Assembly (NCBI GenBank): GCA_040275325.1
Contig: JBEOKA010000358.1
Span: 1-52,509, forward strand
Reading direction: 5' to 3'
Source: Myxococcaceae bacterium
Lineage (GTDB): Bacteria > Myxococcota > Myxococcia > Myxococcales > Myxococcaceae
Length of the DNA stretch: 52,509 nt
The notes under the pieces were generated by a model that worked only from the letters and a program-made list of their open reading frames with translations, was not told the DNA's origin and did no database searches. The position numbers and the translations under genes were made by a program. Positions 6,019-23,364 of the stretch are shown here, one piece after another; position 1 is the first letter of the stretch; the number at the start of each line of letters is the position of its first letter.

Positions 6019-6117
6019 GGGCGCGCCGTGTACCGCAGCCCGTTGCCGTCGCACCGTCTCTGAAACCGCACACCTCGCTCGTCGCGGAAACGTTCCTCCA
6101 CTACGGTGCCCGCCATC

Positions 6118-7203
6118 ATGACGACGAAGCTCAAAGTGGGAGTCCTCGGTGCGACGGGCATGGTGGGCCAGCGGTTCGTCTCGCTGCTCGCCGATCACCC
6201 GTGGTTCGAATTGGTGACGGTCGGCGCGAGCCCGTCGTCGGCCGGTAAGTCGTACGCAGAAGCCGTCGGTGGCCGCTGGTCGTTGCCAGGCGGCATTCCC
6301 GCGGCGGCGTCGAAGCTCACCGTCGTCGACGCGAGCGCGGTGCAGCAGGTCGCCAGCCAGGTCGACTTCGTCTTCTGCGCCGTCGACATGCCGAAGGACG
6401 CGACCGCGAAGCTCGAGGAGGACTACGCGAAGGCCGAGACGCCCGTCGTCTCGAACAACTCCGCGCACCGGTGGACGAGCGACGTCCCCATGTTCATTCC
6501 CGAGATCAACGACGCCCACGTCGCCGTCATCGACGCGCAGCGCCGCCGCCTCGGTACGAAGCGCGGGTTCATCACCGTGAAGCCGAACTGCTCGATTCAG
6601 AGCTACGTGCCGGCGCTGCACCCGCTCAAGCACTTCGGGCCGACGAAGCTCGCGGTCTGCACGTACCAGGCGATTTCAGGAGCCGGGAAGACGTTCGAGT
6701 CGTGGCCCGAGATGGTCGACAACGTCATTCCCTTCATCAAGGGCGAAGAAGAGAAGAGCGAGCAGGAGCCGCTGAAGATCTGGGGCCAGGTCGTGGACGG
6801 CCGCATCGTCACCGCGACCTCACCCACCATCACCGCGCAGTGCATTCGGGTGCCGGTCTCTGATGGCCACATGGCCGCGGTGTTCGTCGCGTTCGAGAAG
6901 AAGCCGACGAAGGAGCAGATCCTCGAGGCGTGGCGGGCTGCTTCCGGCAAGCCGCAGCAGCTGAAGCTGCCCAGCGCGCCGACGCCGTTCCTCACGTACT
7001 TCGAAGACGACGCGCGCCCGCAGACGAAGCTCGATCGCGACATCGGCAACGGGCAGGGCATCAGCATCGGGCGGCTCCGGACGGACGCCGTCTTCGACTG
7101 GCGCTTCGTGGCGCTCTCCCACAACACCGTGCGTGGCGCGGCCGGTGGAGCCGTGCTCACCGCCGAGCTGCTCAAGGCCGAGGGCTGGCTCAGCGCGAAG
7201 TGA
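6118..7203 (+). CDS. asd: Aspartate-semialdehyde dehydrogenase (archaeal/fungal-type)
   Basis: N-terminal KVGVLGATGMVGQRF Rossmann motif. Active-site Cys in KPNCSIQ. Length matches Asd. An alternative GTG start at 6106 would add 4 aa. Confidence 0.85.
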   Translation: MTTKLKVGVLGATGMVGQRFVSLLADHPWFELVTVGASPSSAGKSYAEAVGGRWSLPGGIPAAASKLTVVDASAVQQVASQVDFVFCAVDMPKDATAKLEEDYAKAETPVVSNNSAHRWTSDVPMFIPEINDAHVAVIDAQRRRLGTKRGFITVKPNCSIQSYVPALHPLKHFGPTKLAVCTYQAISGAGKTFESWPEMVDNVIPFIKGEEEKSEQEPLKIWGQVVDGRIVTATSPTITAQCIRVPVSDGHMAAVFVAFEKKPTKEQILEAWRAASGKPQQLKLPSAPTPFLTYFEDDARPQTKLDRDIGNGQGISIGRLRTDAVFDWRFVALSHNTVRGAAGGAVLTAELLKAEGWLSAK

Positions 7204-7206
7204 CGG

Positions 7207-8460
7207 TCAGAAGGTGACCATCGCGGCCAGCTCTCCACCGAGGGCGAGCCGTCTGCCGCTCGTGCGGGTCGCGTCGAAGTCGGTCAGTTGGTGCTCGGAG
7301 TCGAGCAGGAAACCCTCGAGCATGAACGCGAGGTGCTTGTTGATACGCAGCTCGTAGCCCAGCGTTCCACCCGCGTTGTGCAGCAGCCCCGGCCCCGTGC
7401 CCGCGAGCACCGCAGTCGCCATCGAGGGCATCGAGCCATCGGCCGGCATCGACGGGTACGAATACGAGGGGCGAACGGCGTCGCGGTTCAGCACGCGCGC
7501 GAGCCCCGCCGTTCCGTAGACGAAGTGCATGTCGGTGAAGCCGTGGCGCACCGAGACGAAGCCGCCCCACTCGTCGACGTCAGCGGGCCCGCCGAAGCCC
7601 AGGCTCAACAAGCCGATGTTGGCCATGTTGCGACCGAGCGAGAGCTCTGCGCGCAGCGTCGTGCGACCGAACGTCACGTCGGCGAACGCCGTCACGCCAC
7701 CCGAGAGCGCGCGCCGCTGCGTCGGTGTTCCAAAGCCCAGCAGCACCGAGGTCGCGATGCCCGAGACGCCCACGCGCCCCTTGCCGACGAGGAACGCGCC
7801 GCGCACCGCGAACGTCGGCACGCCCGAGAGCTCGAACGCGCTGTCCTTCGCGGTGGTGTTCGCGCCCTCCATGCCGACGGCACCGCCGAGCTCGAACCCG
7901 CCCACCACGCCCAGCACCTTCACCTGCTGGCGCATGAAGCCGGTGTTGCCCGAGAGGAACCGCGTGCCCACCAGGTTGGCGCCATGCGCGTTGACGGGCG
8001 CGTGCAGGTCCCAGTCCTGGCCGGCGATGAGCGAGAACGCCGGCGTCGGCGCCCACTCGATGCGCGCGAGGCGCAGGCGGGGCAACGACACCACCGTCGG
8101 AGACGCCTTCGAGAAGTCGATGAAGTCGACCTCGAGCTGCGCGCGCACCTGGCCCGCTTCGTTCACGGCCAGCCCGAGCCGCGACTGCGCGACCTGAAAA
8201 GTGAGCCGTGGGTCACCCGGCGCGACCGAGACGACCGGGTTGCCTGCTGCCGTGACCGCGCTCGCGTTGGGTTGCCCGAAGGACTCCACCGCGCCCGAGG
8301 AGGGAATCACCGCGGGCTTGAGCGTCGCGTACGGTCGCAACATGCCCAGCACGGTCTCGGCCGCAGAGGGCGGTTGCTGCACGCTCGCGGCGGGCTTCGG
8401 AGGCTCGTCGGCCCAGGCCTGCTCCGAGAGCATCAGCAGGGCGATGGCGACGCGCTTCAT
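7207..8460 (-). CDS. Outer-membrane beta-barrel protein (hypothetical)
   Basis: Signal peptide [17 protein letters not shown]. Alternating hydrophobic beta-strand pattern. C-terminal ...AAMVTF ends in an aromatic residue. Its start overlaps the stop of the upstream MCP gene (ATGA). Confidence 0.55.
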
Positions 8461-9930
8461 GAGCCGCTCCGCGCGTTGTCGAGTGCGCGGGTGCCCTCGA
8501 TGAGCTGGTGAAGGTCGTGCACGACGTCTCGCAGCGTGGTCGCCTGGCCGCTGAGCTCTTGGGCGGCGCTGGCGATCTCCTCTGCGTTGGCGGCCGTGTG
8601 TTGCGTCGACGTGTCGAGCGCATGCAGGCCGTGACCGACCTCGCCGATGTTCTCGGCCTGCTCCGACGAGGCCCGCGCGATACCCGAGAGCAGCTCCCCA
8701 ACCTGCCGCACGTCGTTGGCCAGCGCGGTGAACCCTGCGCTGCTGCCGGTCACGAGCGTCGCGCCCTCCGAGATGCCCGAGACCGTGCGGTCGATGAGGT
8801 CGGCGCTCGTCTTCGAGGCCTCGGCGCAGCGCATGGCCAGCGCGCGCACCTGCTCGGCCACCACCGCGAAGCCCGCGCCCGCGGCACCAGCCCTCGCCGC
8901 TTCGATGGCGGCGTTCAGTGCGAGCAGGTTCGTCTGGAACGCGATGTCGTCGATGGTCTTCACCACCTTGCTCACCTCGCGCCCCGTCTCGGTGACGCGG
9001 CCCATGTGCGTGGTGACGTCTGCGAGCTGGCGGGTGGCGAGGTCGACCTGGTCGGTCGTCGTGCGCATGAGGCGCTGCACTTCGTTGGCGTCGCTCGCGT
9101 TTCGTTTCGTCCGAGACGACACCCCCTCCATCGCGGTCGACGACTGCTGCAGCGCCGAGGCCGAAGAGATGGAGTCGTGCGCCAGGGACTCCGAGACGCG
9201 CGCCACCATGTTGGAGGCGTCGGCGACGTGCGCGCTGCCCTCCTCGAGCGACTCGATGGCCTGCTCGAGCGGCTTCGAGATTCGCCGCGCCACCACGACC
9301 GACATGATCAGCGAGATCAGCAGGCCGAGCGACGACACCGCCACGGCGATGAGCACGACCGCGTTCACGTGGGCCCGAACGTCATCGGTGTACACGCCAG
9401 CGCCAGCGCGGCACCAGCTTCACGTACGAGACCTTCGGCACCGGCGCCTCGGAGCCCGGCTTCGGCCACAGGTAGTCGACGTGCGCGTCGTGGGCCGCAG
9501 ACGCGTTCACGCCCTTGATCATCTCGACGAACAACAGCTTGCCCTTCGGGTCCTTCTTGGCCGACAGATCCTGCCCGTTGAGCGCAGGGTTCATCGGGTG
9601 CATCACCATCGTCGGGTGAAGGTCGTTCACCCAGACGTAGTTCTCGCCGTCGAAGCGCAGTCGTTTGAGGTGGTCGAGCGCGGCGGCCTGCGCCTGCTGC
9701 CGCGTCATGGTGCCGTTCACCTCGAGCTCTTCGTAGAGCTCCACCTGAGAGATCGCCGCTTCGACGGCGGCCTGCGGGTACTCCGAGCGCGCGTCGAGCA
9801 ACAGGTCTCGAAAGCGCCAGGTCGTCCACACCAACACCCCGGCGATGACGAGGTTCGACAGGACGATGAGGGTGAGAATGCGGGCCTTCAGGCTCGACGA
9901 GCTGCGTGCGTTCGGCTGGCGTTCGTTCAT
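8457..9930 (-). pseudogene. Methyl-accepting chemotaxis protein (TM, Cache-like sensor, TM, HAMP, MCP signalling domain) split by a frameshift near 9382-9397
   Basis: ORF 9382-9930 encodes TM1 plus the sensor (ENYVWVNDLHPTMVMHP...[11 protein letters not shown]). ORF 8457-9395 encodes GVYTDDV, TM2, HAMP and the MCP signature [30 protein letters not shown]. The two overlap by 14 nt in different frames at a tandem CGCCAG-CGCCAG. Confidence 0.6.
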
Positions 9931-10178
9931 GCGGATCCCTCTGCGCCTGACGGTGCAAGCTGGGCTCCACTCACGATCAGTGAACGAAGTCAGCGAAGTC
10001 TGTTGAGGTTCTGCTGAGGATGGTGGCTCATGAAAAGCCTCCCATCGTCATGACGGTGACGCGCAGTTGATCCGCCGCAGTGCGGACACTGTGGGCCGAT
10101 GTCGGGGCGGGTTTGTTCTTGGTCAAGCAACAGTCCTCTGTGAAAATTCCACTCCTGTTGTCTACCGGGAGCTGCGCC
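9931..10178. promoter_or_regulatory. Divergent intergenic region (lower GC) between the MCP and TSP3-OmpA genes; probable promoters
   Basis: 248 nt with no plausible coding. Locally AT-richer (e.g. TGTGAAAATTCCACTCCTGTTG). No confident -35/-10 or sigma-54 match. Confidence 0.3.
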
Positions 10179-11750
10179 ATGTTCGACCGTAGGCACGCGC
10201 TGCTCGTGGCGACGCTCGTCGTTTCTTCGCTCGCCCACGCTGAGAGCGGCAGGCTGAACCTCAACGCAGACCTCGGCCTCGCAGCGCCCTTCACGGGTCG
10301 CTATGGCACGGCTTCGAACCCGACGTACGTGGCGCAGGCGCTGGGGCCGCAGCTCACGCTCGGCGTCGACTACCAGCTCGTGCGCCCCATCGCGCTCGAG
10401 CTCATCGCCGAGCTCGGGGTTCAATTCCTCCCATCGTGGTTGTCGATTCGAAACCTCGAGAAGCTGCCTGCGGCGGTGGTGATGGGCGGGCTTGGCGCTG
10501 GCGGGCGCTTTCGGTTCCTCGACACCGACGCGGGCAACCTCTGGGCCTCGGCGCACGTCGGCTTTCGCGTGCTCGACGGGGTGCAGTTCGCCGTCGACGC
10601 GGGCGCGGGGTACCAGTTCGCGCTCACCTCTCGCCTCGCGCTCGGGCCCTTCCTGCGCGGTGAGCTGCTCACGCCGAACGTCACCTCGAAGCGCGGGAGC
10701 ACGGTGCTGGTCGCGCTCGGCGTCGGTGGTTCGTTCGAGCTGCTGCCCTTCGTCGTCGCGCCGCCTCCCCCCGTCGACGACGACGGTGATGGGTTGACCA
10801 ACGACGCCGAGTTGCAGGTGCACCACACCGACCCGGCGCGCGCCGACACCGACGGCGACGGCGTGCGTGACGACGTCGAGGTCGCGAACAAGACCAACCC
10901 GACCACGAGCGACACCGACGGTGATGGGCTGCGCGACGACGTCGAGCTCGCGAACAAGACCAACCCGCTGCTCGCCGACTCCGACTCCGACGGCGTGCGC
11001 GACGACGCCGAGCTCGCGAACAAGACGAACCCGCTCGTCGCCGACACCGACGCCGACGGGCTGCGCGACGACGCCGAGCTGGTGAACAAGACGAACCCGC
11101 TCGTCGCCGACACCGACGCCGACGGGCTGCGCGACGACGTCGAGGTGAACGGCAAGACCAACCCGCTGCTCGCCGACACCGACGGTGATGGAAAGTCTGA
11201 CGGCGACGAAGACGCGAACCACGACGGCGTCGTCGACCCTGGAGAGACCGACCCGCGCGTCGCGCCGCCGCCCGACACCGATGGTGACGGCCTGCCCGAC
11301 CCCTCCGACAACTGCCCGGCCGTCGCCGGCCCCGTCGACAACCGCGGCTGCCCGAAAGAGACGAAGCAGCTCGTCGTCATCACGAAGGAGAAGCTCGAGA
11401 TTCTCGAGAAGGTCTACTTCAACACCCGCGACGCCTCGGTGCTGCCGAAGTCGTTCCCGCTGCTCGACCAGGTCGCCGCGATTCTCACCAGCCACCCCGA
11501 GCTCAAGCGCCTGCAGATCGAAGGGCACACCGACGACGTCGGCAACGCCGAGAAGAACCTGAAGCTGAGCCAGGACCGCGCGAACGCCGTCTTCAAGTAC
11601 CTGTCGAAGAAGGTCGACCCGCAGCGCCTCGAGCCCATCGGCTACGGCCAGACGCGCCCCGCAGACAGCAACGACACGCCGGCCGGTCGCGAGAAGAACC
11701 GGCGCGTCGAGTTCAAGATCGTCGGCACCGAGAACCCCGTCACGCAGTGA
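10179..11750 (+). CDS. OmpA-family protein with thrombospondin type-3 (Ca-binding) repeats
   Basis: Start moved to ATG 10179, giving signal peptide MFDRRHALLVATLVVSSLAHA. About 7 DxDxDGxxDxxE TSP3 repeats (DTDGDGLRDDVELANKTNPL...). C-terminal OmpA_C (NTRDASVLPKS...LQIEGHTDDVGNAEKNLKLSQDRANAV...RRVEFKIV). Confidence 0.8.
   Translation: MFDRRHALLVATLVVSSLAHAESGRLNLNADLGLAAPFTGRYGTASNPTYVAQALGPQLTLGVDYQLVRPIALELIAELGVQFLPSWLSIRNLEKLPAAVVMGGLGAGGRFRFLDTDAGNLWASAHVGFRVLDGVQFAVDAGAGYQFALTSRLALGPFLRGELLTPNVTSKRGSTVLVALGVGGSFELLPFVVAPPPPVDDDGDGLTNDAELQVHHTDPARADTDGDGVRDDVEVANKTNPTTSDTDGDGLRDDVELANKTNPLLADSDSDGVRDDAELANKTNPLVADTDADGLRDDAELVNKTNPLVADTDADGLRDDVEVNGKTNPLLADTDGDGKSDGDEDANHDGVVDPGETDPRVAPPPDTDGDGLPDPSDNCPAVAGPVDNRGCPKETKQLVVITKEKLEILEKVYFNTRDASVLPKSFPLLDQVAAILTSHPELKRLQIEGHTDDVGNAEKNLKLSQDRANAVFKYLSKKVDPQRLEPIGYGQTRPADSNDTPAGREKNRRVEFKIVGTENPVTQ
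10840..11235 (+). repeat. In-frame tandem array of ~66-nt TSP3 repeat units
   Basis: Units at 11035-11100 and 11101-11166 share a perfectly identical 38-nt core (TCGTCGCCGACACCGACGCCGACGGGCTGCGCGACGAC). Earlier units are more diverged. Confidence 0.7.
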
Positions 11751-11799: not shown

Positions 11800-14700
11800 G
11801 TGAGGTCATCTCTGTCTCCGCGGGGGCCCGTCGTCGGGTTGCTGCTGCTCGGCGCAGCGGTGTCGGGCTGTCAGTGCGGCACGCGCCCGGTACCCGACCA
11901 GGTGAGCTCGGGCTTTCAGATGAGCCGCGACTCGCTCTCGTTCCCGAACTTCGCGGCTGGCTACGACGGCTCCGAGCTCGACGTCGACGGCATGAAGCGC
12001 ATGTTCGGCGACCAGGTGTGCGTGGCGGGCTCGGCTCCGTGCGAGCTCACCAACGGCGCGCGCACCTTCATGGAGAACGCGAACACCGCCATGTCGGGCG
12101 GTCGCTGCGAGGGCTTCGCGGTGCTGGCCGACCTCATGGCGGCGAAGAAGATCGACGTGACGACGTTCGGCGCGAAGACGGCGCGTGAGCTGGTGCTCGA
12201 CGAGAACCCCGCGCTCCAGAAAGAGCTCGCCTACTGGTTCGCCACCCAGCTCGTGCCCGGCGCCGTCGGCGCGAAGACGAAGACGTACACCGCGCGCGAG
12301 GTGCTGCCCGTGCTCGCCGACTCGTTCGACGAGGGCGCCACCGAGCACTACCGCATCGGCATCGTGCGCAAGGTGGGGAAGACCATCACCGGTGGGCACT
12401 CGTTGACGCCCATCGGCTTCACGCGCGACCCGTCGGCCGCGGGCGTGTACTGGCTGCGCGTCTACGACAACAACCACCCCGACCTCGAGCGCCTCATGAA
12501 GCTCGACACGGTGAACAACCGCTGGGAGTTCGAGGCGTCGACGAACCCCGACCAGCCCTCGCGCCTGTACTTCGGCGACTCGAGCAACGAGAACCCGCTC
12601 TACCTCGCCCCCATCTTCACGCGGCAGGGCGCGCTGCCGTGCCCGTTCTGCGAAGGCGGCGGCGCGCAGGTCGTCACCACCGGCGGCGCGCAGCCCTCCA
12701 TCACCACGCCCTCGGGCACCGTGGGCGTCACCGACGGCACGCTGAGCACGGCGAGCGGCACCTCGCTCACACCGTCCTTCTCGGACCCGACCGACGCCGA
12801 GGGCGTCAGCTTCGTCATCGGGCTCAGCGCCGACACGATGTCGTCGATGGGCGACCTCTCGGTGCAGGTGACGTCGCAGGGCGACCCGCAGAACCCCGAC
12901 GCCTTCCAGTCCATCGGGGTGCAGCGCCGCGACCTCTTCACGCAGGCGAGCGGGCTGCAGGTGACTGCGGCCGACACGTTCACGGCGACGTCGCAGGGCG
13001 GCCGGTACACCAACGCCTCGCGCTCTCCCCTCGAGCTCACCACGCGGCTGCCGACGGGCATGGGCGTCGTGTCGGTCACCGCCTTCGTGACGGGCGGCTC
13101 GGACTCCGTCAGCGCCTCCGTCGACCCGGCGAGCGGCGCGCTCACGCTGCAGCTCACCGGCGCCATGGGCACGAACGTCGGTGTCACCGTGCAGGGCACC
13201 ACGAGCGGCGGCGCCACGCGCGCGGCGCAGTTCTTCTTCACCAGCCAGGGCACGGCGACGCTGCAGGCCGACACCACGATGTGGATGCAGGGCGGTCAGC
13301 TGACGGGCTCGCTCGACAACGGCGGCACCCGCACCACCGTCTCCAACGCCTGCACCGACGGCGTGAAGTCGGGTCTCGAGACCGATGTCGACTGCGGCGC
13401 GGCGTGCAACGTCGGCTGCGGCGTCGGCAAGAGCTGCAGCGCTGATGCCGACTGTGGCTCGGGCCTCTGCCACCCGACGTCGAAGGTGTGCATCACCGAC
13501 GCCTGCGAAGACACGCGGCAGAACTTCGGAGAGACGGGCGTCGACTGCGGCGGGCCGTGTGCTCCGTGCGCCGTCGGGCTGGGCTGCCGGGCCTCGAGCG
13601 ACTGCGCGACTCCCTCACTCCACGACTGCGTGGGAGGAACCTGCACGCGCGTGTACACGATTGGCGCGGCTGTCAGCTTCCCCGCCGAGCTCAGCGGCGG
13701 CCTCGGCACCGAGCTGCAGCTCGCCAACGGCGCTGACCGCATCACCGTCGTCTCGTCGGGCAGCTTCCCGTTCCCCACCCGCACCACCGGGCCCTACGCC
13801 GTCACCATCGCGCGGCAGCCACAGCAGGCCGAGTGCAGCGTCGGCATGGGCAGCGGCACGGCGTCGGCCGACGTCTTCGTCGCCGTCTCGTGTGTGCGCC
13901 GCTTCACCATCGGCGGCAGCGTCACCGGGCTGCCGGCCGGTGAGACCGTCACGCTGTCGAACAACGGCGCCAGCCCGCTCCAGCTCTCGAGTGACGGGCC
14001 CTTCGTCTTCCCGCTCCAGCCAGCAGGTGGCTACGCCGTCACCGTCACGACGCAGCCGATGAGCGCCACCTGTGTGGTGACGAACGGCACCGGGCCCGCG
14101 CCGACGAGCGACATCACCACCGTGTCGGTCGTGTGCAGCCAGGCGATGACGTACTCCATCGGCGGCACGGTCTCGGGCCTGGGAGCGGGCAAGACGCTCG
14201 TGCTCGACAACGACGGCGACCAGCGCAGCGTCACGATGAACGGCAGCTTCACGTTCACCAACCGCGTCACCGGTGCGTACACCGTCACCGTCGCCACGCA
14301 GCCCGTCGGCCAGCAGTGCCTCGTCACCAACGACACCGGCACCGCGACGGCCGACGTCACCAACGTCACCGTCGTCTGCACCGACCTGTACACGATTGGC
14401 GGCACGCTCTCGGGCCTCGGCGCCAGCAACACGGTCACGCTCTCGAACGCGGGCGAGCAATTGCCGCTGACGATGAACGGCGCGTTCCAGTTCACCACGC
14501 CCGTCGCTGGCCCCTACGCCGTCACCGTCTCGACACAGCCCTCGGGCCAGATGTGCACCGTGCAGAACGGCTCGGGCACCGCGACGGGCAACGTGACCAA
14601 CGTGACGGTGACCTGCCTCGGCGCACCGGGCCGCGACACCAGCTTCGGCACCGGCGGCTTCACGCGCGTGGCGCTCACCGCCAACTTCGACGCGTGGCAG

Positions 14701-15795
14701 GCCCTGGTGGTGAACCCCGACGGCACCCTGGTGCTCGCGGGGGCGAGCGAGGCCGTCTCGGGCTCGACGCAATGGGTCGTCTCGAAGGTGACGGCCGCGG
14801 GCGCCATCGACACCAGCTTCGGCGTCAACGGGCACCGCACCATCACCGCGGGCACCGGGCAGGAGCAGGCCAACGCCATCGTTCGTGATGGCACGGGCCG
14901 CTACCTCGTCGCCGGCACGCTGCAGGGCACGACGAACCTCGACGTCGCCGTCGCGCGGCTCACCACCACGGGCGCGCTCGACACCACCTTCGGCACCAAC
15001 GGCGTGGCGCGCTTCGACCTCGGCGGTGACGACGTGCTGCAGGGGCTCACGCTCGACTCGATGGGGCGCATCGTCGTCGTGGGCAAGCAGGGCCTCGTGG
15101 GTGGCGACCTCATCGTCGCGCGGCTCACCACGGCGGGCGCGCTCGACAGCACGTTCGCCACCACCGGGCGCTACCTGCCGACCACGGGCACGGGAGAAGA
15201 GCTCACCGGCGTCGTCGTCGACGCGTCGAACGCCGTCATCGCCGTCGGCCTGCGCGACCAGGACTCGTTGGTGCTCAAGCTCACGGCGGCCGGCGTGCCT
15301 GACACCACCTTCGGCACCGCGGGAGAGGCCGTCGTCGACCTCTCGACCGGCCTCTTCGGCGACAAGCTCGAAGCGGTGGCGCTCGAGGGCACGCGCATCG
15401 TCGCCGCGGGCACCAGCCTCGACTCGGGCGCGTCGAACTTCGTCATCGCCGGCTTCACCGCGGCAGGCGCGCTCGACACCGGCTTTGGCGCCGCGGGCAT
15501 CACCGTCGTCGGCGGCGCGACCGAGATGGAGGCGCTGCACGCGCTGACGCCGAGACCGGGAGGTGGGTGGTACGCCGCCGGCGCCACCGACTCGAGCGCC
15601 GCGGTGCTGCGCTTCACGGCGGCCGGCGCGCTCGACACCACCTTCGCCACCAACGGCCAGTTCACCGACGCGTTCGGTGGCACGGCCAACGCCTTCGCCG
15701 CCGCCGTCGATGGCGTCGGCCGCATCGTCATCGCAGGCAGCTTCGCGGCAGGTGCCGGCGCGAGCGACCTGGGCATCGCGAGGATCAACCCATGA
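11800..15795 (+). CDS. Large secreted lipoprotein: N-terminal Cys/His-containing domain, Cys-rich modules, four tandem Ig-like repeats, C-terminal delta-60-repeat beta-propeller
   Basis: Lipobox LLLGAAVSGC. C-terminal repeats GALDTTFGTNG / GAIDTSFGVNG / GALDSTFATTG match the delta-60 repeat (TIGR02608) pattern. 1331 aa. The stop overlaps the next start (ATGA). Confidence 0.75.
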   Translation: MRSSLSPRGPVVGLLLLGAAVSGCQCGTRPVPDQVSSGFQMSRDSLSFPNFAAGYDGSELDVDGMKRMFGDQVCVAGSAPCELTNGARTFMENANTAMSGGRCEGFAVLADLMAAKKIDVTTFGAKTARELVLDENPALQKELAYWFATQLVPGAVGAKTKTYTAREVLPVLADSFDEGATEHYRIGIVRKVGKTITGGHSLTPIGFTRDPSAAGVYWLRVYDNNHPDLERLMKLDTVNNRWEFEASTNPDQPSRLYFGDSSNENPLYLAPIFTRQGALPCPFCEGGGAQVVTTGGAQPSITTPSGTVGVTDGTLSTASGTSLTPSFSDPTDAEGVSFVIGLSADTMSSMGDLSVQVTSQGDPQNPDAFQSIGVQRRDLFTQASGLQVTAADTFTATSQGGRYTNASRSPLELTTRLPTGMGVVSVTAFVTGGSDSVSASVDPASGALTLQLTGAMGTNVGVTVQGTTSGGATRAAQFFFTSQGTATLQADTTMWMQGGQLTGSLDNGGTRTTVSNACTDGVKSGLETDVDCGAACNVGCGVGKSCSADADCGSGLCHPTSKVCITDACEDTRQNFGETGVDCGGPCAPCAVGLGCRASSDCATPSLHDCVGGTCTRVYTIGAAVSFPAELSGGLGTELQLANGADRITVVSSGSFPFPTRTTGPYAVTIARQPQQAECSVGMGSGTASADVFVAVSCVRRFTIGGSVTGLPAGETVTLSNNGASPLQLSSDGPFVFPLQPAGGYAVTVTTQPMSATCVVTNGTGPAPTSDITTVSVVCSQAMTYSIGGTVSGLGAGKTLVLDNDGDQRSVTMNGSFTFTNRVTGAYTVTVATQPVGQQCLVTNDTGTATADVTNVTVVCTDLYTIGGTLSGLGASNTVTLSNAGEQLPLTMNGAFQFTTPVAGPYAVTVSTQPSGQMCTVQNGSGTATGNVTNVTVTCLGAPGRDTSFGTGGFTRVALTANFDAWQALVVNPDGTLVLAGASEAVSGSTQWVVSKVTAAGAIDTSFGVNGHRTITAGTGQEQANAIVRDGTGRYLVAGTLQGTTNLDVAVARLTTTGALDTTFGTNGVARFDLGGDDVLQGLTLDSMGRIVVVGKQGLVGGDLIVARLTTAGALDSTFATTGRYLPTTGTGEELTGVVVDASNAVIAVGLRDQDSLVLKLTAAGVPDTTFGTAGEAVVDLSTGLFGDKLEAVALEGTRIVAAGTSLDSGASNFVIAGFTAAGALDTGFGAAGITVVGGATEMEALHALTPRPGGGWYAAGATDSSAAVLRFTAAGALDTTFATNGQFTDAFGGTANAFAAAVDGVGRIVIAGSFAAGAGASDLGIARINP
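13651..14620 (+). repeat. Four tandem ~82-aa (about 246-nt) Ig-like repeats within the 11800-15795 CDS
   Basis: Repeat starts near 13651, 13897, 14146 and 14383. Each shows xTIGGxVSGLxAGxTVxLSNxG...NGxFxF...GxYAVTVxTQPxxxxCxVxNGxGxAxxDVTxVxVxC. Confidence 0.6.
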
Positions 15796-18700
15796 ACCGA
15801 CCCTTCCTGCTGGCGACGAGCCTCGCGCTGGTGCTGACCGCTTCGTGCGCTGAGGAGCCGCTGCCCGAGGCGCCGCCGCTCTTCTCGGCGTACGACCCGA
15901 CGGTGCAGTGCCCTGCGGGCCAGGTGGGGTGGGACCTGTCGACGGGCGGCGGGCTCGACCCGCTCCAGCGCAACTCCGTCGGCGACGTCATCAAGCTCAT
16001 CACCTCGAACCTCACCAACTGCGGCCTGACCGGCACCGACCTTCGCCAGGCCTGCGACGGCGAGACCGAGTGCACGAAGCCGGTGACGTGCGCGGACTCG
16101 GCGGTCGACGTCACCTACGTCTGCGGCACCGAGGCGGCGACGTACACCGCGCGCGTCGAAGGCGTCGGCGCAGACCGCTTCTTGCGCATCAGCTGCGGCA
16201 TGCCCATCACGGTGCTCAAGGCCCTCTACGCGCCCACCGCGACGAGGCCGGCCGACATCTCGAGCGCGCTCGCGGCCAGGTGCTCGGGCAAGCGGCGCTG
16301 CTCGAACGGCGCGTCGGGCTACTCGCTCAACAGCTTCGTCGACCCCGCGCCGAACCAGCCGAAGACGGTCAAGGTGACGTACCGCTGCGGCATCGAGCCG
16401 GCCGAGCGCATCGCCGAGGTCGATGACTTCACGCTCGACTTCTACTGCCCGCTCAACGCCACCAGGTTCCCCGTGCGCGAGAACATCAAGGTGGTCTCGG
16501 CCGAGCCGCGGCTCGAGTCGTTCTCGGGCCACCAGGACAACCTCGCGTGGGCAGCCGAGCTGAAGGCGCAGATCGCGAAGACGTGCGATGGCAAGCCGCA
16601 GTGCGAGGTGAGCTTCACCGGCCTTCGCGCGAACGGCTCCGACCCGAAGGGTACGTGGGGCGCCGTGCGCGACATCAACCGCAACTGGGTTCTCAAGGGA
16701 ACCGACGCGATGGGCTGGCCCGACGAACGGCGGCTGTCCACGGGCGGCACCATTCTCATCGGAGGGAACTACCTCATCCTCGGGTACACCTGCGGCGCGG
16801 GGAACTACGTCAACTACAAGGCCATCGACCCGACCGCGCAGCCGCCGAACGAGCGCGTCACCATTCGCTGCGGCGACTTCGTCACCGTGACGGGCCTCGA
16901 CACGAAGCGCTACGGCGAGCGCACCTTCTCGCCCAACCCCATCATGCTGGCGGCGACGAAGGCACGCTGTGATGGGCGTCGCGTCTGCACGCCGCCCGCC
17001 TACTTCGGCCGCTCCGGCCCGGGCTCGTACACGGGCCCTGACGGAGGGCAGCAGGCCATCGGAGAGTACGGGCGGTTCCGCTACACGTGCGGCGACCTCA
17101 CCAACAGCGTCTCGGTCGAGAAGGAGATCGACTACTACGGCGCCATCAACCCCGCTGACCTCGAGTGCCCGCCCGCTGCTGGCGACCTGCTCGCGACGGG
17201 CGTGCAGCTGGTCTCGGTGACGCCCGACTCGCGCACCCTCGAGGTGAGCCGGCTGTGTGGCGGCCGCACCGTCTGCTCCGCGCCGGCGGGCGTCACCGCG
17301 ACGTACCGCTGCGCCGACGACCCGGCGGTGAAGACGTCGTCGCCCGAGATGAACTGCGGCACGCTCGTCTTCCCGACGGGCGTCACCAGCAGCGCCTATG
17401 CCTGCTTCGAAACGCCGGGGCCGAGCGCGTGCGCGAACCAGCGCGGCACCTGCAAGTTCTTCCCGAGGTACGCGAGCGACTACGGGCGCGCGACCTGCGG
17501 CAACGTCACCTACAGCTACACGTGCGGCTGCGACCCGACGGTGCGAACCAAGACGTACACCCCGCGCCCCGACGGGCTGCCGGTGTTTCACAACAACCTC
17601 AGCATGCCGGTCGAGCTGACGTGCCCGCCGGTCGCCACCTCGTGCACCCGCAAGGGCTGTGTGCCGCTTCGCTGCACGGGCGCGACGCGCCGCAACGCCG
17701 ACCTCGCCTGCGTGCCCGACAGCTCGCTCAAGCCGACGCACTTCCTGGCCATGCCCGCGGTGAACGACTGGGTCTCGCTGCCCGACGGCGGCACCGACCC
17801 GCTGGGCCGCACGCTGACGCGGGCCGCTGACGGCGCCTTCGTCATCAAGAGCGACTTCCCGTATCAGGTGTTCTCGTCAGTGCTGTACAAGACCGACAAC
17901 CGTCAGGCGCTCGACGACAAGACGACGGCGCTGGCGTGGAGCTTCGACCAGTTCAAGCGCAAGGCCGGCGCGACGCGGCCAGACGGCGGCGTGCTGCCAG
18001 AGCTCGCGGGCGGCCTGCGGTGCGTGGTGAACCAGGCGGCGCTGCGCGGCAGCGAGCGCACGTCGACGATTCCCGGCTACCGGTGGGCCCTCGTCGGCGG
18101 CAAGGGCCAGACGATTCCGTCGAACTGCTTCGAGCAGGACGGGTACAACGACCCGTCGACCTCGGTCTACGACGCAGCCGCAGCGCTGGGCCTCGAGGAG
18201 TCTCAGTTCCGCGCGCGGTACGACTACTTCAAGACCTTCATGACCTCGTCGCTCGACCCGCAGGGCGTCAGCGTCGTGCGCCGCCTGACCGCCACGGCCA
18301 CGCCCGTCGGCGTGAACCCCGTTGGGTTCTTCTATGACCCGCGCCGCGACTTCGTCTCGTTGACGGGCTTCTACGCGCAGACGACCGACTTCGCGAACTC
18401 GGTGCAGGTGCGCTTCGAGCCCAGCACGCAGATCGAGCTCGGCGCGCTCTTCGAGACCATCTCGGCGGGCGACCTGCTGGTCGACGTCGAGCAACCGAAC
18501 CTGCTCCCGTCCTTCGACGTCAGCCTGGGCTGGTACCTGCGCGGTGACGCTCCGGCGAACCCGTACTCGGCGCGTACGCGCGTCGCCAACAACCCCGCCG
18601 GCACCTCGCTCGCCACGCGCAACCTGCGCATGACGGTCGAGATGGCGCGCTCGGACACGGGCCTCGCCAACCCGTGGGTGGAGTCGAACTCGGTGCGCTT

Positions 18701-20753
18701 CCCCGCGGGCGCGCTGGCCGGGGGCAGCAACTTTCTGCAGACCGACACGGTGCGTGTCGAGGTGACGCCGGCCCTTCGCAAACGGCTGCTCTCGGTGCGC
18801 AGCGCTCCGAACTCGCTCGCCGCCGTCACCGAGCCCGACGGCTTCATGTCTGACCTGCTCGACGAAGACACGGCGTTCCTCGTGCGCACCTGCATCGACC
18901 TGGACGGCATGACGCGCGCGCCGGCCGACACCGGCATCGACAACGTGACGCTGCCGACGCTGAACGGCTACAGCCTGAAGGTGGCGCAGCGCTGCACGCC
19001 GGCGCGCACCGTCGTCTTCACGCGCCAGCTCTTCGTGCGGCCCACCACGCCTGCGGCCGCGGCCGAGCTCAAGAACGACAAGGGCGCAGGGCAGAGCACC
19101 GGAGACCGCGACCTCGGCGGCAGCAACACCAACGGCTCCGAGGTGAGCTGCATTCGGGAGTGCGGCACCAACGCCGACTGCGGCCTCAACGGCACGTGCA
19201 ACCTGCCGCAGGGCGCGCGCATCGGCACCTGCGCGAAGACGCTGACGAACCGCACCTGCAAAGACGCGACGCAGTCGAAGGGCGGGCTCGGCGGGCAGCT
19301 GCCCATCAGCATGTTCGACTCGAAGTCCGACAGCAGCTCGGAGATCAACGAGAAGCGCGCCGGCGCCCAGACGACGAACTGCGCGAGCGGCCGCGGCGCG
19401 ATGCTGAGCTTCAACGTGCTCGAGCCGATGGGCAGCTGCCAGGACCGGCTCGACGCGCCGACGTGGGAGGTCAAGCTCGAGCTCATTCCCAACTTCGACC
19501 CCGTCATCGCCTTCTTCAAGGGCAAGAAGTACGGCGTCTTCAACACCGACGCGAAGAAGACCCTCATGCGCGCGAAGAACTTCAGCGTGCGGCGCTCTGC
19601 GAGAGGGAAGACGGCGAGCGGCAAGAAAGAGAGCCTGTGGGCTCCGCAGTCGAACGGCCTGGGCTTCGCGGCGTCGCGTGAGTTCTACATCACCATCGGG
19701 CCCATCCCCATCGTCGTCGAGGTCGGCTTCAGCGCGGGCTTCGGCATCAAGGGCATCTTCACCTTCAAGGGCCAGACGGCCGAGGAGGGCATGACGAGCC
19801 AGTTCTACCCGTGCGTGAACGGGTCGGCTGCATCGACCGGCACCTGTTACGAGGTCGACTCCGAGCCGAAGACGTTCGAAGACGCGCTCAAGGGCTGCCA
19901 GGAGCGGGGCGGCTCGCTCGCCATCGCGAAGACCTCGACGCTGTTGTCTGCGGTGAACCTCGCCCTCGACCGAGCCGACGGCGGCACGCTCGACGGTGGC
20001 CCCTCGTTCTGGATCGGCGCGCAGGCGGCGTACAACTACGAGTACCCGAGCTGCAGCACCAACGGCGTCTTCAAAGACGGCGGCGTCGGCCCCAACGGCA
20101 CCTTCTCGGAGTCGTGCAGGACGGCGTCTGCGACGAGCTACGAGTGGCTCGAGGGTGGCGGCAGCATCGCCAAGCAGCGCGGCCTCTCGCCGGCCATCGT
20201 GCCCAGCCCCGCGGTCACCATCTCGAACCCCTTCACCAACCTCTCGCTCGGGCCCAGCCTCATTCCGGCGCGCGCGGGCCTCTCGTACCAGCGCAGCGGC
20301 GCGGTGAAGCAGGCGCCCACCGAAGAGCTCAAGCCGTCGATCTGCAGCTTCGACGGCGCCACCCAGGTGAAGTCGACGACGAACGTGAAGGAGTTCAACA
20401 TCGAGTTCAGCATCGGCGTGGCGCTCGCCATCTGCGTGCCCAGCAACCGCGTCGGCATCTGCATCGCCGGAGACCTCACGTTCTTCTCGGCCTCGTGGGC
20501 CTTCGCCTCGTCGCAGACCGAGACGAACGTGTTTCAGGGCCCGTCGAACAACCGCGTTCAGAAGTCGCTCTTCGGCTCGACGGACAACACCGGCGAGTGG
20601 ACGCGCAGCCTCATCTCGGGCTCCATCGGCGCCGAGCTGCGCGCCTTCTTCTTCACCAAGCGCTTCGTCATCAAGGAGTTCAAGCCGGTGAAGCAATGGG
20701 AGGGTGACATCTACCAACCCAGCTCGAGCCCCTACTTCCGGAGGTTCCCATGA
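15792..20753 (+). CDS. Giant (1653 aa) Cys-rich secreted lipoprotein with SUEL/rhamnose-binding-lectin-like repeats and a C-type-lectin-like domain
   Basis: ATG 15792 overlaps the upstream stop. Lipobox LVLTASC. Repeated ...C.G...C...V.Y.CG modules (VTYVCG, KVTYRCG, VTIRCGDF, RFRYTCGD). Around 19840-20100: YEVDSEPKTFEDALKGCQERGGSLAIAKTS...FWIGAQAAYNY, which is C-type-lectin-like. Confidence 0.65.
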   Translation: MNRPFLLATSLALVLTASCAEEPLPEAPPLFSAYDPTVQCPAGQVGWDLSTGGGLDPLQRNSVGDVIKLITSNLTNCGLTGTDLRQACDGETECTKPVTCADSAVDVTYVCGTEAATYTARVEGVGADRFLRISCGMPITVLKALYAPTATRPADISSALAARCSGKRRCSNGASGYSLNSFVDPAPNQPKTVKVTYRCGIEPAERIAEVDDFTLDFYCPLNATRFPVRENIKVVSAEPRLESFSGHQDNLAWAAELKAQIAKTCDGKPQCEVSFTGLRANGSDPKGTWGAVRDINRNWVLKGTDAMGWPDERRLSTGGTILIGGNYLILGYTCGAGNYVNYKAIDPTAQPPNERVTIRCGDFVTVTGLDTKRYGERTFSPNPIMLAATKARCDGRRVCTPPAYFGRSGPGSYTGPDGGQQAIGEYGRFRYTCGDLTNSVSVEKEIDYYGAINPADLECPPAAGDLLATGVQLVSVTPDSRTLEVSRLCGGRTVCSAPAGVTATYRCADDPAVKTSSPEMNCGTLVFPTGVTSSAYACFETPGPSACANQRGTCKFFPRYASDYGRATCGNVTYSYTCGCDPTVRTKTYTPRPDGLPVFHNNLSMPVELTCPPVATSCTRKGCVPLRCTGATRRNADLACVPDSSLKPTHFLAMPAVNDWVSLPDGGTDPLGRTLTRAADGAFVIKSDFPYQVFSSVLYKTDNRQALDDKTTALAWSFDQFKRKAGATRPDGGVLPELAGGLRCVVNQAALRGSERTSTIPGYRWALVGGKGQTIPSNCFEQDGYNDPSTSVYDAAAALGLEESQFRARYDYFKTFMTSSLDPQGVSVVRRLTATATPVGVNPVGFFYDPRRDFVSLTGFYAQTTDFANSVQVRFEPSTQIELGALFETISAGDLLVDVEQPNLLPSFDVSLGWYLRGDAPANPYSARTRVANNPAGTSLATRNLRMTVEMARSDTGLANPWVESNSVRFPAGALAGGSNFLQTDTVRVEVTPALRKRLLSVRSAPNSLAAVTEPDGFMSDLLDEDTAFLVRTCIDLDGMTRAPADTGIDNVTLPTLNGYSLKVAQRCTPARTVVFTRQLFVRPTTPAAAAELKNDKGAGQSTGDRDLGGSNTNGSEVSCIRECGTNADCGLNGTCNLPQGARIGTCAKTLTNRTCKDATQSKGGLGGQLPISMFDSKSDSSSEINEKRAGAQTTNCASGRGAMLSFNVLEPMGSCQDRLDAPTWEVKLELIPNFDPVIAFFKGKKYGVFNTDAKKTLMRAKNFSVRRSARGKTASGKKESLWAPQSNGLGFAASREFYITIGPIPIVVEVGFSAGFGIKGIFTFKGQTAEEGMTSQFYPCVNGSAASTGTCYEVDSEPKTFEDALKGCQERGGSLAIAKTSTLLSAVNLALDRADGGTLDGGPSFWIGAQAAYNYEYPSCSTNGVFKDGGVGPNGTFSESCRTASATSYEWLEGGGSIAKQRGLSPAIVPSPAVTISNPFTNLSLGPSLIPARAGLSYQRSGAVKQAPTEELKPSICSFDGATQVKSTTNVKEFNIEFSIGVALAICVPSNRVGICIAGDLTFFSASWAFASSQTETNVFQGPSNNRVQKSLFGSTDNTGEWTRSLISGSIGAELRAFFFTKRFVIKEFKPVKQWEGDIYQPSSSPYFRRFP

Positions 20754-22777
20754 AGCGCGTCGTCATCGCCGCGGCCGCGCTGTCGGTGGTCGCCCTCGAA
20801 ATCTGGTCGACCCGTCGCGACGCCGAGCAGCCCGCGCCGGCCGTGCCTTCGGCGCAGCCCACAGCCCCCAGCGCGTCACCCGTCACGTCGCGCGAGCCGA
20901 CCGAGGGTACGCCGTGTCATTTTCTCGCCGGGCAACGCTTCGCCTTCGAGCTCGAGACGCAGGCGACGGCGAAGCTCTCGGGCGAGCTTGGCCGCTACGG
21001 GCTCTCGGACGACCGACAGGAGACGACGTCGTCGGCCACGCTGAACGTCGAGGTGCTCTCTGACGATGGGCACTCGGCAGTGCTGCTCTCGCGCCTGCTC
21101 GACGGCACCAACGGGCTCGCTGGCCCCGACGTCTCGCAGCCGTGGCTGGCCCGGGTGAACGAGCGCTGTGAGGTGGCCGGCTTCGCGCGCCACGTCAGCA
21201 CCTCGAAGCTGGTGGGCCGCCAGCAGCAGGCGCTGTTGCACGAGCTGTGGTTCACCGTGCCGCGGGGCGTGGCCGTCACCGCCGCCGACTTCGACAACGC
21301 CATGGGCCGCGCCTCGGCCCTCGTCTCGTTCGAGCGTGACCCGTCGGCTGAGGTGGTGATTCGCCGCATCGAGCGCTTCCGCTCGGCGTGGGCGCCAGCG
21401 ATGAATGGCCTCGTCGTCGAGGGCTCGACGCTCGTCGTGCGACGCGGCGAGGGGCCCTGGTTTCAGTCGATGGAGGGCTCCGAGGCGTACTCGGTGCCCG
21501 GCGTGGTGACGTCGGCGCAGGCGACCTTCACCGCCACCGCCACCACCTTCGACGCCTCGGCCTTCGAGGGCGCCTCGCGCGTGATGAACGAGTACGTCTG
21601 GGAGAGCTGCTTCGACCAGCTCCCGGCGTCGGGTGCCCGCACCTTCACTGCGGCCGACCACCAGCAGCGCGTCGAGGCGATGAAGAACGTCAGCTACCCC
21701 GACGCGCTCGAGAAGATGCTGGCCACCTTCGCCGTGCCGGGCACGCTGCACGACCAGTCGCGCGACATGGCCGCCTTCCTCGACGCGCACCCCGAGCAGA
21801 TTCACGAGTACGCGGGCGCGCTGCTCACCGAGTTCGAGCCCGAGTGGAAGGCCGCCGGCTTTCTCGTGCTGGCCAACACGCAGCACGCGCTGGCGCGCGA
21901 GGTGTTGTTCGACGTCTGGCGTGAACGTGACGCGCCGATGATGGAGCGCTCGCGCGCCAGCCTCGCGCTGGTGAGCCGCCGCGACGTCGGCGTGAGCCTC
22001 GCGAGAGAGCTCTTCAGCGAAGCGCGCCGCAGCGGCACGCACTCGCAGCGCAATGTCTCGCAGCAGGCGCTGCTGCACGCCGGCATTCTCACCGCGCTGC
22101 ACCCCGACGACGTCGAGACGAAGCTCGAGGTGCAGCGTGGCCTCGCGGTCGAGCTCGGTGCACGCCTGACGCCGCTGGAGCGGGCGCCCGTGTACTCGGC
22201 CATCGGCAACACCGGGAACCCGGCCTTCCTGCCCGAGCTGGAGCGCGCCTCGCGCAACCCCGACCCCGAGTGGCGAAGAATCGTCCCCATCGCGCTGCGC
22301 CGCATGAAGGTCGACGACACGCGCGACTTCACGCTCGAGTGGCTGCGCCGCGAGACGAGCCCCGACGTGATGCGCGAGCTCTACGACATCGTGCAGCAGC
22401 AGTACGAAGACCAGGGCCGCGTGGTGGACGACGAGCTGGCGGCCGAGGCGGTGGGCTGGCTGCGCGAGAAGCCGCGCCTGCTGACGCGCCAGAGCCTCGT
22501 GCAGCTGCTCAAGCCGCTCGTGGCCACCAATGAGGCGGTGCGCGCGGCGATGAAAGAGACGCTGAAGCTCGAGTACGAGACGCGCACCGGCATGTTCCCC
22601 TTCGTGGCGTCGTGCCTGTCTGACGAAGACGTGCGCGAGGTGCTCTCGACGATTCCGACGCTGGCTGACCAGCACCGCGGGGTGGGCCAGGCACCGCCGC
22701 CCCCACAGCACGCGCCGCGACCGAGCGAGCCCGGGCCCGAGCTGATGCCGAAGTTCCCGACCGGAGAGGCGCCATGA
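20750..22777 (+). CDS. Hypothetical secreted/membrane-anchored protein with C-terminal HEAT-like repeats
   Basis: ATGA overlap with the upstream gene. N-terminal hydrophobic MKRVVIAAAALSVVALEIW. The C-terminal third is alpha-helical and repetitive (LERAPVYSAIGNTGNPAFLPELERASRNPDPEWRRIVPIAL). Confidence 0.55.
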   Translation: MKRVVIAAAALSVVALEIWSTRRDAEQPAPAVPSAQPTAPSASPVTSREPTEGTPCHFLAGQRFAFELETQATAKLSGELGRYGLSDDRQETTSSATLNVEVLSDDGHSAVLLSRLLDGTNGLAGPDVSQPWLARVNERCEVAGFARHVSTSKLVGRQQQALLHELWFTVPRGVAVTAADFDNAMGRASALVSFERDPSAEVVIRRIERFRSAWAPAMNGLVVEGSTLVVRRGEGPWFQSMEGSEAYSVPGVVTSAQATFTATATTFDASAFEGASRVMNEYVWESCFDQLPASGARTFTAADHQQRVEAMKNVSYPDALEKMLATFAVPGTLHDQSRDMAAFLDAHPEQIHEYAGALLTEFEPEWKAAGFLVLANTQHALAREVLFDVWRERDAPMMERSRASLALVSRRDVGVSLARELFSEARRSGTHSQRNVSQQALLHAGILTALHPDDVETKLEVQRGLAVELGARLTPLERAPVYSAIGNTGNPAFLPELERASRNPDPEWRRIVPIALRRMKVDDTRDFTLEWLRRETSPDVMRELYDIVQQQYEDQGRVVDDELAAEAVGWLREKPRLLTRQSLVQLLKPLVATNEAVRAAMKETLKLEYETRTGMFPFVASCLSDEDVREVLSTIPTLADQHRGVGQAPPPPQHAPRPSEPGPELMPKFPTGEAP

Positions 22778-23364
22778 CGTCGACGCGCTGGTTGCTTCCA
22801 CTGCTCGCGCTGAGCGCCTGCCCACCGCCGCCCGTCGTGACACCCGACGAAGACGCGGGCGCTGAGACCCGGCCCGTGTTCGATGGGCCCACGCAGAACA
22901 GCGGCATTCCCGACCTGCCCGAGGACTTCGTCTTCGACGCGTCGATTCCCGCCATCGACAGCGGCACCATCGTCGTCGACACGCGGTGCTGCACGACGAA
23001 CTTCAGCATCTCAGACCAGGAGGCCGCGGGCGGCGTGGTGGGCGAGCTTCGCGTGGGGCTGCCGACGTTCTCGTCGGGCGTCGCGCTCAGCCGCGGTGGT
23101 GGTCGATGGCGCGCGACGGCGTGCTTCCCGGTGAACCAGGCAGCCACCTACCGCTACGAGTTCACGTGGGACGCGGGCCTCGTCGACGCTGGGCAGGTGG
23201 AGGACGACGACGGCGGCATCATCGGCCTCGAGCTGGTCGACGTTCGCCACTTCGCGCGCGCGAGTGACGAGGAGCCGGGCTTCACGCTCGACGATGGGTC
23301 ACGCACCAACTTCTTCCGCTCCGTCTCGTCGTGCGAAGGGCTCGACGGCTCGGTGCCACCGTGA
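22774..23364 (+). CDS. Small lipoprotein (hypothetical)
   Basis: ATGA overlap with the upstream gene. Lipobox LLALSAC followed by a Pro-rich spacer. Confidence 0.55.
   Translation: MTSTRWLLPLLALSACPPPPVVTPDEDAGAETRPVFDGPTQNSGIPDLPEDFVFDASIPAIDSGTIVVDTRCCTTNFSISDQEAAGGVVGELRVGLPTFSSGVALSRGGGRWRATACFPVNQAATYRYEFTWDAGLVDAGQVEDDDGGIIGLELVDVRHFARASDEEPGFTLDDGSRTNFFRSVSSCEGLDGSVPP

Follow-up and report, generated by a model that had tools for sequence, protein, structure and literature searches.

Degenerate rhamnose-binding-lectin-type modules and a C-type-lectin-like domain in a giant predicted lipoprotein of uncultured Myxococcota

Gene B encodes a protein of 1653 residues in a contig of an uncultured Archangiaceae/Myxococcaceae-type myxobacterium (assembly GCA_040275325.1, contig JBEOKA010000358.1; the 52,509 nucleotides analysed are called the window and have 69% GC). 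The initial annotation, made from the letters alone, had described the product as a giant lipoprotein in which modules of about 90 residues of the SUEL/rhamnose-binding-lectin (RBL) type are combined with a C-type-lectin-like domain (CTLD) into a multivalent glycan-binding surface protein. The question raised by this locus is whether such animal-type lectin folds are really present in a bacterial lipoprotein and whether they can still bind sugar. The analysis indicated that both fold assignments are correct, each domain being a degenerate variant of a known family, and that at most one of the SUEL-like modules looks competent for sugar binding. A CTLD is already flagged by the NCBI pipeline in some relatives, which carry the name "C-type lectin domain-containing protein".

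Gene B is a single open reading frame (ORF) whose ATG overlaps the stop codon of the upstream gene A as ATGA (coordinates of all features are collected in Table 1). Its GC content at third codon positions, 0.92, is typical of coding sequence in a window of this composition. The N-terminus of the product, MNRPFLLATSLALVLTAS-C19, agrees with the lipobox pattern [LVI][ASTVI][GAS]C, and the protein is predicted to be lipidated by way of a signal peptidase II lipobox, as had been proposed. A word-indexed search of 5.8 billion proteins returned only 17 homologous clusters at 97-27% identity, all of 1559-1823 aa. In the alignment of these with gene B (18 sequences, down to 27% identity) C19, all module cysteines and six CTLD cysteines are invariant.

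The cysteine-rich modules M1 to M6 share the pattern C ... C-x5-C ... Y-x-C(G). They are 55-122 aa long and not a uniform 90 aa. The strings that had drawn attention to them are all present: VTYVCG (106-112), KVTYRCG (193-200) and RFRYTCGD (428-435) do close modules, whereas VTIRCGDF (356-363) is the first strand of M4, at the 'L-x-C' position of the fold. Further module ends are LGYTCG (329-335), ATYRCA (503-508) and YSYTCGC (574-580). The module alignments of the 17 homologues were compared pairwise with hhalign, which related M1 to M5 to one another (up to 98.2% probability for M2-M4; Table 1). The Pfam model SUEL_Lectin aligned to residues 157-199 of gene B through profile positions 40-80 with 18.3 bits (E = 0.0031); its best relatives scored 19.2-21.1 bits, and 7 of the 18 members had E <0.1. 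When the profile of M2 (residues 131-201, 17 sequences) was searched against all PDB sequences, 11 matches with E <10 were obtained and all 11 were of the RBL/SUEL type, led by CSL3 (1.8e-5), CSL2 (1.7e-4), SUL-I (3.1e-4), a latrophilin-like protein (0.0024) and a beta-galactosidase lectin domain (0.014). A profile of M4 together with two Labilithrix homologue modules gave still lower values, including 9.7e-6 for SUL-I. Distant homologues retain the canonical motifs: the relative P0017 and the Labilithrix homologue L023 keep 'A-[ST]-Y-G-x-N-C ... C-x-G-x-x-x-C ... G-D-P-x-x-G-C-x-K ... Y-x-C', and in L023 the entire SUEL profile is aligned by Pfam (1-80 of 80, E = 4.2e-4). Because of the RBL profile matches, the mutual similarity of the modules and these motifs, M1-M5 are read as descendants of the SUEL/RBL domain. 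The descent of M6 is doubtful. The equivalent region of P0017 opens with a canonical-looking 'SYGASC...C.GK..C'.

The state of the sugar site was analysed against the animal lectins. RBL domains contain four disulfides (C1-C3, C2-C8, C4-C7, C5-C6) and the motifs YGR and DPC-x-G-T-Y-K-Y-L, and in CSL3 the sugar is held by Glu7/107, Tyr27/127, Asn74/174, Asp79/179, Lys86/186, together with the backbone of Gly83/183 (PMC3269628). The gene B modules have four cysteines each, at the C2, C5, C6 and C8 positions, that is two of the four disulfides (in M2, C135-C199 for C2-C8 and C164-C170 for C5-C6). None of them retains C1-C3 or C4-C7, YGR or the cysteine of DPC. In M2, A-L-Y-A-P replaces A-N-Y-G-R and D-P-A-P-N-Q-P-K replaces D-P-C-x-G-T-Y-K, by which M2 retains Y, D-P and K of the motifs but not G-R and C. 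In the HMMER alignments Y146, D184 and K191 of M2 fall on CSL3 Y127 (the YGR tyrosine), D179 and K186, and the three residues are invariant in the family. Since only M2 keeps these Tyr/Asp/Lys ligands, the array does not look obviously multivalent, and the multivalent glycan binding that had been suggested is not borne out in that form. Animal RBLs (SUEL, CSL1-3, SUL-I; PF02140) have in common with gene B the tandem modules of about 55-120 aa (putatively alpha/beta in gene B), the skeleton 'L-x-C ... A-x-Y ... C-x-G-K-x-x-C ... D-P ... K ... Y-x-C' and the C2-C8 and C5-C6 equivalents. The gene B modules differ, besides the losses above, by a deletion of a loop of about 12 residues in M2, and by large insertions in M3 and M4, and they belong to a bacterial, lipid-anchored protein of 1653 aa. 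The latrophilin/ADGRL lectin domain and Plasmodium P113 represent single or double domains in eukaryotic receptors, whereas gene B has five or six in a bacterial lipoprotein.

The second lectin-type fold is a long-form CTLD. The segment CYEVDSEPKTFEDALKGCQERGGSLAIAKTS...FWIGAQAAYNYEY, in which a CTLD core had been suspected, corresponds to residues 1352-1417. Pfam Lectin_C reached 13.0 bits on gene B (E = 0.18), 9 of the 18 members had E <0.1 (best 7.5e-4), and the best relative, P0069, scored 22.3 bits. In a search of the PDB with the full-length family profile, the best 60 of 81 sequences were all CTLDs. With a profile of the CTLD only (residues 1336-1526) the best matches were a tetranectin-derived CTLD (1.2e-10) and tetranectin (2.4e-10), and 78 CTLD sequences fell below 0.01. 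By position, the putative disulfides are C1341-C1352 (the C0-C0' hairpin) and C1369-C1518 (C1-C4), all four cysteines being invariant, and a further invariant pair, C1421-C1442, probably forms another one in an enlarged loop. The WIGL-type motif reads F-W1407-I-G1409-A, and the C-terminal 'LPYVC-Y' aligns to 'LPYICQF' of tetranectin. The C2-C3 disulfide is not present: the positions of tetranectin 'C-AVLS ... KR-C' are taken by A1494 and a non-Cys residue, and the stretch aligned to 'CAVLS...GKWF(D)KRC' is 'AGLSY...AVKQAPTE', in which the part opposite W-x-D reads V-K-Q-A and varies across the family. The fold is that of a CTLD, and the domain is therefore C-type-lectin-like, without the canonical calcium and sugar site. 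Compared with canonical CTLDs (tetranectin, the mannose-receptor family with DEC-205, collectins, NK receptors; PF00059), the long form, the C0-C0' hairpin, C1-C4 and WIG(A/G) are shared; the C2-C3 bridge and the EPN/QPD/WND site are missing, a pair of cysteines is added, and the domain lies within another beta domain instead of being appended. The absence of significant matches to PF02140 or PF00059, together with unrelated predicted folds, had been named as what would speak against the two assignments. In Pfam the single sequence indeed stays below threshold for both families, but the folds appear to be the predicted ones.

The host of the CTLD is a C-terminal module of about 370 aa, in which strands S1-S7 of 15-30 residues resemble a beta-barrel. 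In the model (DSSP) the CTLD lies between S2 (1305-1331) and S3 (1525-1549). An exhaustive profile search with residues 646-1653 against 1.84 billion representatives gave 694 proteins below 1e-3 and 88 below 1e-30. Among these 88 about 20 are full-length, and about 60, of 1070-1330 aa, share only the last ~480 positions, that is the CTLD-in-beta module. Nearly all superfamily N-termini carry a lipobox, SUEL-like modules are confined to the long class and Labilithrix, and every member that was traced to an organism belongs to Myxococcota (the named ones to Polyangia, Labilithrix and "Deltaproteobacteria" metagenome-assembled genomes, MAGs). The G1303-P1304-x-P1306 turn and the S3-S7 residues given in Table 1 are near-invariant in 87 aligned sequences. 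Some members extend by about 500 aa after the module with two VOMI domains (vitelline membrane outer layer protein I); the Pfam E values in L028 and P0038 range from 6e-78 to 2.8e-83, and for P0043 and P0054 the assignment comes from length and match position. The VOMI-bearing relative of L028 lies at L028:9770-15088, and L028 and L029 hold the cassette genes described below in rearranged order. In P0017 the M6 position has received a bulb-type (GNA-like) B-lectin (residues ~650-830) whose Q-x-D-x-N-x-V-x-Y motif is intact. Pfam is silent on it, and against the PDB it matches gastrodianin (6.5e-13) and, at about 1.6e-6, two bacteriocins, pyocin L1 and putidacin L1.

The best explanation of these data, with a probability of roughly 50%, is that gene B encodes an outward-facing glycan-recognition lipoprotein of the envelope or cell surface. 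The product would be an outer-membrane or surface lipoprotein and, in one envelope complex with the products of the neighbouring genes A, C and D, would form the extracellular recognition arm of the four proteins. In M2 the capacity to bind a sugar of the rhamnose or galactose type, by way of Tyr146, Asp184 and Lys191, has probably survived, the remaining SUEL-like modules may serve mainly as a rigid disulfide-stapled stalk, and the CTLD may bind a protein or glycan ligand independently of calcium, like CTLDs of the natural killer (NK) receptor type. Glycans are favoured as the target class because unrelated carbohydrate-binding domains (SUEL-like, B-lectin, VOMI) were repeatedly recruited around the same core. 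L-rhamnose is common in bacterial surface polysaccharides, which makes other bacteria plausible targets, and the most plausible ligand would be the polysaccharide or surface of another cell, prey or kin.

Several points weigh against this explanation. Both lectin models stay below their Pfam gathering thresholds (31.4 bits for SUEL_Lectin, 22.6 for Lectin_C). Sugar-ligand residues are missing from M1 and M3-M6, that is from four or five modules, and in M2 itself Asn74 has no unequivocal counterpart (the alignment gives G176; N180, at least 90% conserved, lies beside a 3-residue insertion) while the N-terminus is unaligned and no Glu7 equivalent can be assigned. The CTLD has neither EPN/QPD nor WND, so that all canonical carbohydrate and Ca2+ determinants are missing from it. 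The sugar binding is deduced from such alignments, and the localisation, at the periplasmic face or the cell surface, from the lipobox only. For the cassette partners, family profiles built on the N-terminal 530 aa of A, on C and on D gave no credible match in the PDB, and Pfam recognised nothing in them beyond DUF5122 in A and HEAT in C. The family is known only from MAGs (the 26 loci of the genome scan described below).

The same degeneration can be read in another way, namely that the protein is a structural or protein-binding component of the envelope and no lectin, the modules being disulfide-stapled spacers and the CTLD binding a protein (for example A, C or D, or one of another cell). 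The loss of two of the four disulfides, of YGR and of the DPC cysteine in all modules (judged by the rules of PMC3269628) and the missing ligands outside M2 are in accordance with it, and the non-lectin RBL folds ADGRL3 and P113 rank among the top matches of the N-terminal part. A pure spacer would not be expected to keep Y146, D184 and K191 of M2 invariant down to 27% identity, and the relatives have repeatedly gained bona fide carbohydrate-binding domains, B-lectin and VOMI. This alternative is possible but was judged rather unlikely.

The C-terminal module bears on how the glycan-recognition lipoprotein would be held in the envelope. It could be an integral outer-membrane beta-barrel, a lipidated anchor of autotransporter or OmpA-like type that fixes the protein in the producer's own outer membrane and has the CTLD displayed by a surface loop, a proposal about anchoring that is compatible with the glycan-recognition explanation. 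The family-averaged hydropathy of S1-S4 showed strict alternation of large hydrophobic residues with Gly/Ser/Ala/Thr and few charges, conserved in the 87 sequences, the putative periplasmic turns are short, and geometry and alternation would favour membrane insertion. However, no outer-membrane protein (OMP) or autotransporter family was matched by gene B in Pfam, even at E values up to 10, or in NCBIfam. The outer-membrane beta-signal, an aromatic end with the barrel at the extreme C-terminus, is not seen in the superfamily, where the last residue is mostly Q, P or E and is F or Y in 13 of 86 members. The hydrophobic stripe of about 17-21 residues is roughly twice a membrane span, and the S1-S2 turn (I-G-P-I-P-I) is itself hydrophobic. 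The C-terminal VOMI extensions also count against a barrel anchor, as in an even-stranded OMP topology both lectin-bearing ends would be periplasmic. The model, with a predicted template modelling score (pTM) of 0.44, was counted against the barrel too. The barrel anchor is thus considered unlikely, and in its classical autotransporter/OMP form it was downgraded on account of the polar C-termini, the VOMI extensions and the over-long hydrophobic stripe. Intimin/invasin-type adhesins are bacterial envelope proteins in which a module resembling a beta-barrel is joined to small repeated domains that form a stalk and to a head of CTLD-like type. Gene B combines the same three types of part, the membrane insertion of its barrel-like module being putative, but there is no sequence or Pfam relationship, its CTLD is housed inside the barrel-like module, and its stalk follows a lipid anchor at the N-terminal end.

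The absence of the beta-signal from a module that resembles membrane barrels also fits a more speculative idea, according to which the CTLD-in-long-hairpin module would be a new membrane-inserting device: the SUEL-like, B-lectin and VOMI domains, interchangeable with one another, would dock on prey glycans and aim the device at the surface glycans of other cells, the long hairpins would insert as a pore former or fusogen, and uncultured predatory Myxococcota would deploy it from a four-protein envelope machine dedicated to it. The design of a variable lectin plus a conserved long-strand beta module recurs across the superfamily, the hydrophobic, Gly/Pro-rich, disulfide-clamped tips G-P-x-P and C-x-P-S...G-x-C are near-invariant in 79-82 of 82 sequences, and the strands have an alternating Gly/Ser/Ala-rich face. 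The B-lectin of P0017, though closest to plant lectins, also matches pyocin L1 and putidacin L1. These two and LlpA are lectin-like bacteriocins, which exemplify how a bacterial lectin module can target the surface polysaccharide of another bacterium; the gene B protein has no B-lectin and shares no other architecture with them. Myxobacteria are contact-dependent predators, which was counted in favour of the idea. Against it, the protein is lipid-anchored and not obviously released, the Ser/Thr-rich segment 1160-1210 shows by inspection no amphipathic alternation, and nothing in the cassette was recognised as a gene for a toxin or for immunity. A membrane-attacking role was accordingly regarded as quite improbable. 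An aerolysin/ETX-MTX2-type toxin was rejected, as no fold or sequence match was seen and the Ser/Thr-rich linker holds no amphipathic hairpin. TraA outer-membrane-exchange receptors have a PA14 domain, Cys-rich repeats and MYXO-CTERM; a TraA-like receptor was likewise rejected, as no PA14 match was found in Pfam and, by inspection only, no C-terminal MYXO-CTERM tag.

About 1000 residues of gene B belong to structure other than lectin-type modules, including the barrel-like module that hosts the CTLD. The middle beta-rich region of about 435 aa is confidently modelled, with predicted local distance difference test (pLDDT) values of about 80-95, and no family was recognised for it in Pfam, by family profile against the PDB or from the predicted structure. 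The small Cys-knot/EGF-like segment within the low-confidence linker 1081-1285 has pLDDT <50 and is missing from P0013-P0016. The conservation of the whole protein peaks at residues 26-55, outside every lectin module. Their invariant columns in the 18 sequences are P28, L30, F31, A33, D35, C40, G46, W47, D48, T51, G52 and G53, and the segment may direct sorting of the protein or provide a contact for one of the cassette partners.

Genes A-B-C-D form a conserved cassette, and with ATGA overlaps at all three junctions (A-B, B-C and C-D) they are read as translationally coupled. The genome scan covered one genome per species (185,579 species) with two peptide patterns, including the motif of residues 26-55. 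It returned 26 loci, all in MAGs of Myxococcota (Archangium, Archangiaceae, Myxococcaceae, Labilithrix and unclassified "Deltaproteobacteria"). About 20 of the 26 show the full order A-B-C-D and 2 a rearranged one; the other loci end too near B to reveal all four genes. At a locus where the identity of B is only 30%, that of A is 45%, of C 41% and of D 32%. Cultured myxobacteria (Myxococcus, Archangium, Cystobacter, Stigmatella) gave no match to the two peptide patterns, which may be too strict, or else the cassette may be limited to uncultured lineages. HEAT_2 is matched in 11 of 14 members of gene C. NCBIfam and PADLOC gave no match for gene B or its neighbours.

In the N-terminal ~270 aa of gene A (about 11884-12700) the motifs G-G-R-C-E-G-F-A-V, G-G-H-x-x-T-P and V-Y-D-x-N-x-P-D are invariant in 14 homologues; this Cys/His/Asp(Asn) arrangement recalls cysteine peptidases of the papain or transglutaminase type, with no Pfam or PDB match for or against it. 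In the Archangiaceae MAG loci L003/L005 (about 6000-10000) the called gene A has no more than 499 aa, with several small opposite-strand ORFs upstream, and tblastn places gene A residues 8-827 further upstream, probably owing to a frameshift or mis-assembly in that MAG. A gene for a TSP3_bac-repeat and OmpA-domain protein (10071-11750, +) adjoins the cassette upstream. It is found there also in closer relatives (L003-L006, L008; 58-69% identity) and not in distant ones, and its product may be an accessory peptidoglycan tether. Still further upstream, sCache_2 (5e-30) and the MCP signalling domain (3.2e-34) were recognised in the ORFs 8457-9419 (-) and 9382-10047 (-), which overlap by 38 nt in different frames. 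The two appear to be parts of a single chemoreceptor gene that a frameshift has interrupted, be it in a pseudogene or through faulty assembly.

Table 1. Coordinates of gene B, the elements of its product and the other cassette genes in the window
Feature	Position	Strand	Remarks
Gene A, 1331-aa lipoprotein (VSG-C)	11800..15795	+	conserved N-terminal domain, beta-sandwich repeats, DUF5122 propeller; predicted to be translationally coupled to B
Gene B, 1653 codons	15792..20753	+	whole ORF; 17 homologous clusters
Lipoprotein signal peptide, lipobox LTAS-C19	15792..15848	+	read from sequence; C19 invariant in 18 sequences
Segment PPLF-A-DP...C..G..GWD[LF]STGG, residues 26-55	15867..15956	+	most conserved stretch; directly after the lipid anchor, runs into M1
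M1, residues 36-113, divergent SUEL-like	15897..16130	+	hhalign M1-M2 91.0%
M2, residues 131-201, best-preserved SUEL/RBL-like module	16182..16394	+	Pfam SUEL_Lectin E = 0.0031; PDB profile matches
M3, residues 215-336, SUEL-like with long insertion	16434..16799	+	hhalign M3-M4 96.7%, M2-M3 88.3%
M4, residues 356-435, SUEL-like	16857..17096	+	hhalign M2-M4 98.2%; profile A10 against PDB: CSL2 2.8e-8, CSL3 5.4e-8
M5, residues 455-509, minimal SUEL-like	17154..17318	+	hhalign M3-M5 83.6%, M2-M5 63.4%
M6, residues 518-582, Cys-rich, only possibly SUEL-derived	17343..17537	+	hhalign <=23%
Cys-rich linker (C611, C618, C623, C628, C640)	17622..17711	+	C611, C623, C628, C640 invariant; C618 not conserved
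Middle beta-rich region, residues 646-1080	17727..19031	+	confidently modelled
Small Cys-knot/EGF-like segment, residues 1120-1156	19149..19259	+	read from sequence; inside low-confidence linker
Beta-module strands S1-S2, residues 1288-1331	19653..19784	+	hydrophobic G1303-P1304-x-P1306 turn; DSSP of model; alternating hydropathy
Long-form CTLD, residues ~1339-1521	19806..20354	+	between S2 and S3; WIG motif
Beta-module strands S3-S7, residues 1525-1651	20364..20744	+	conserved G1542, C1548-x-P1550-S...G1555-x-C1557, W1603, G1610, FFSxSWxIxxFxG
Gene C, 675 aa	20750..22777	+	N-terminal hydrophobic helix, HEAT repeats; ATGA overlap with B
Gene D, 196-aa lipoprotein (LSA-C)	22774..23364	+	ATGA overlap with C

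Literature searches on myxobacterial SUEL/CTLD lipoproteins found nothing relevant, and no description of the CTLD-in-beta-module architecture, of its superfamily or of the A-B-C-D cassette was found in the literature searched. The analysis points to two animal-type lectin folds, both degenerate, in a bacterial lipoprotein that is nearly blank under standard annotation, and gene B marks a conserved four-gene envelope cassette as well as a superfamily comprising 88 or more sequence clusters. Myxobacteria are known for contact-dependent predation and cell-cell recognition. If surface polysaccharides of other bacteria that contain rhamnose or galactose are indeed what the protein recognises, it would qualify as a candidate factor for the recognition of prey or kin.

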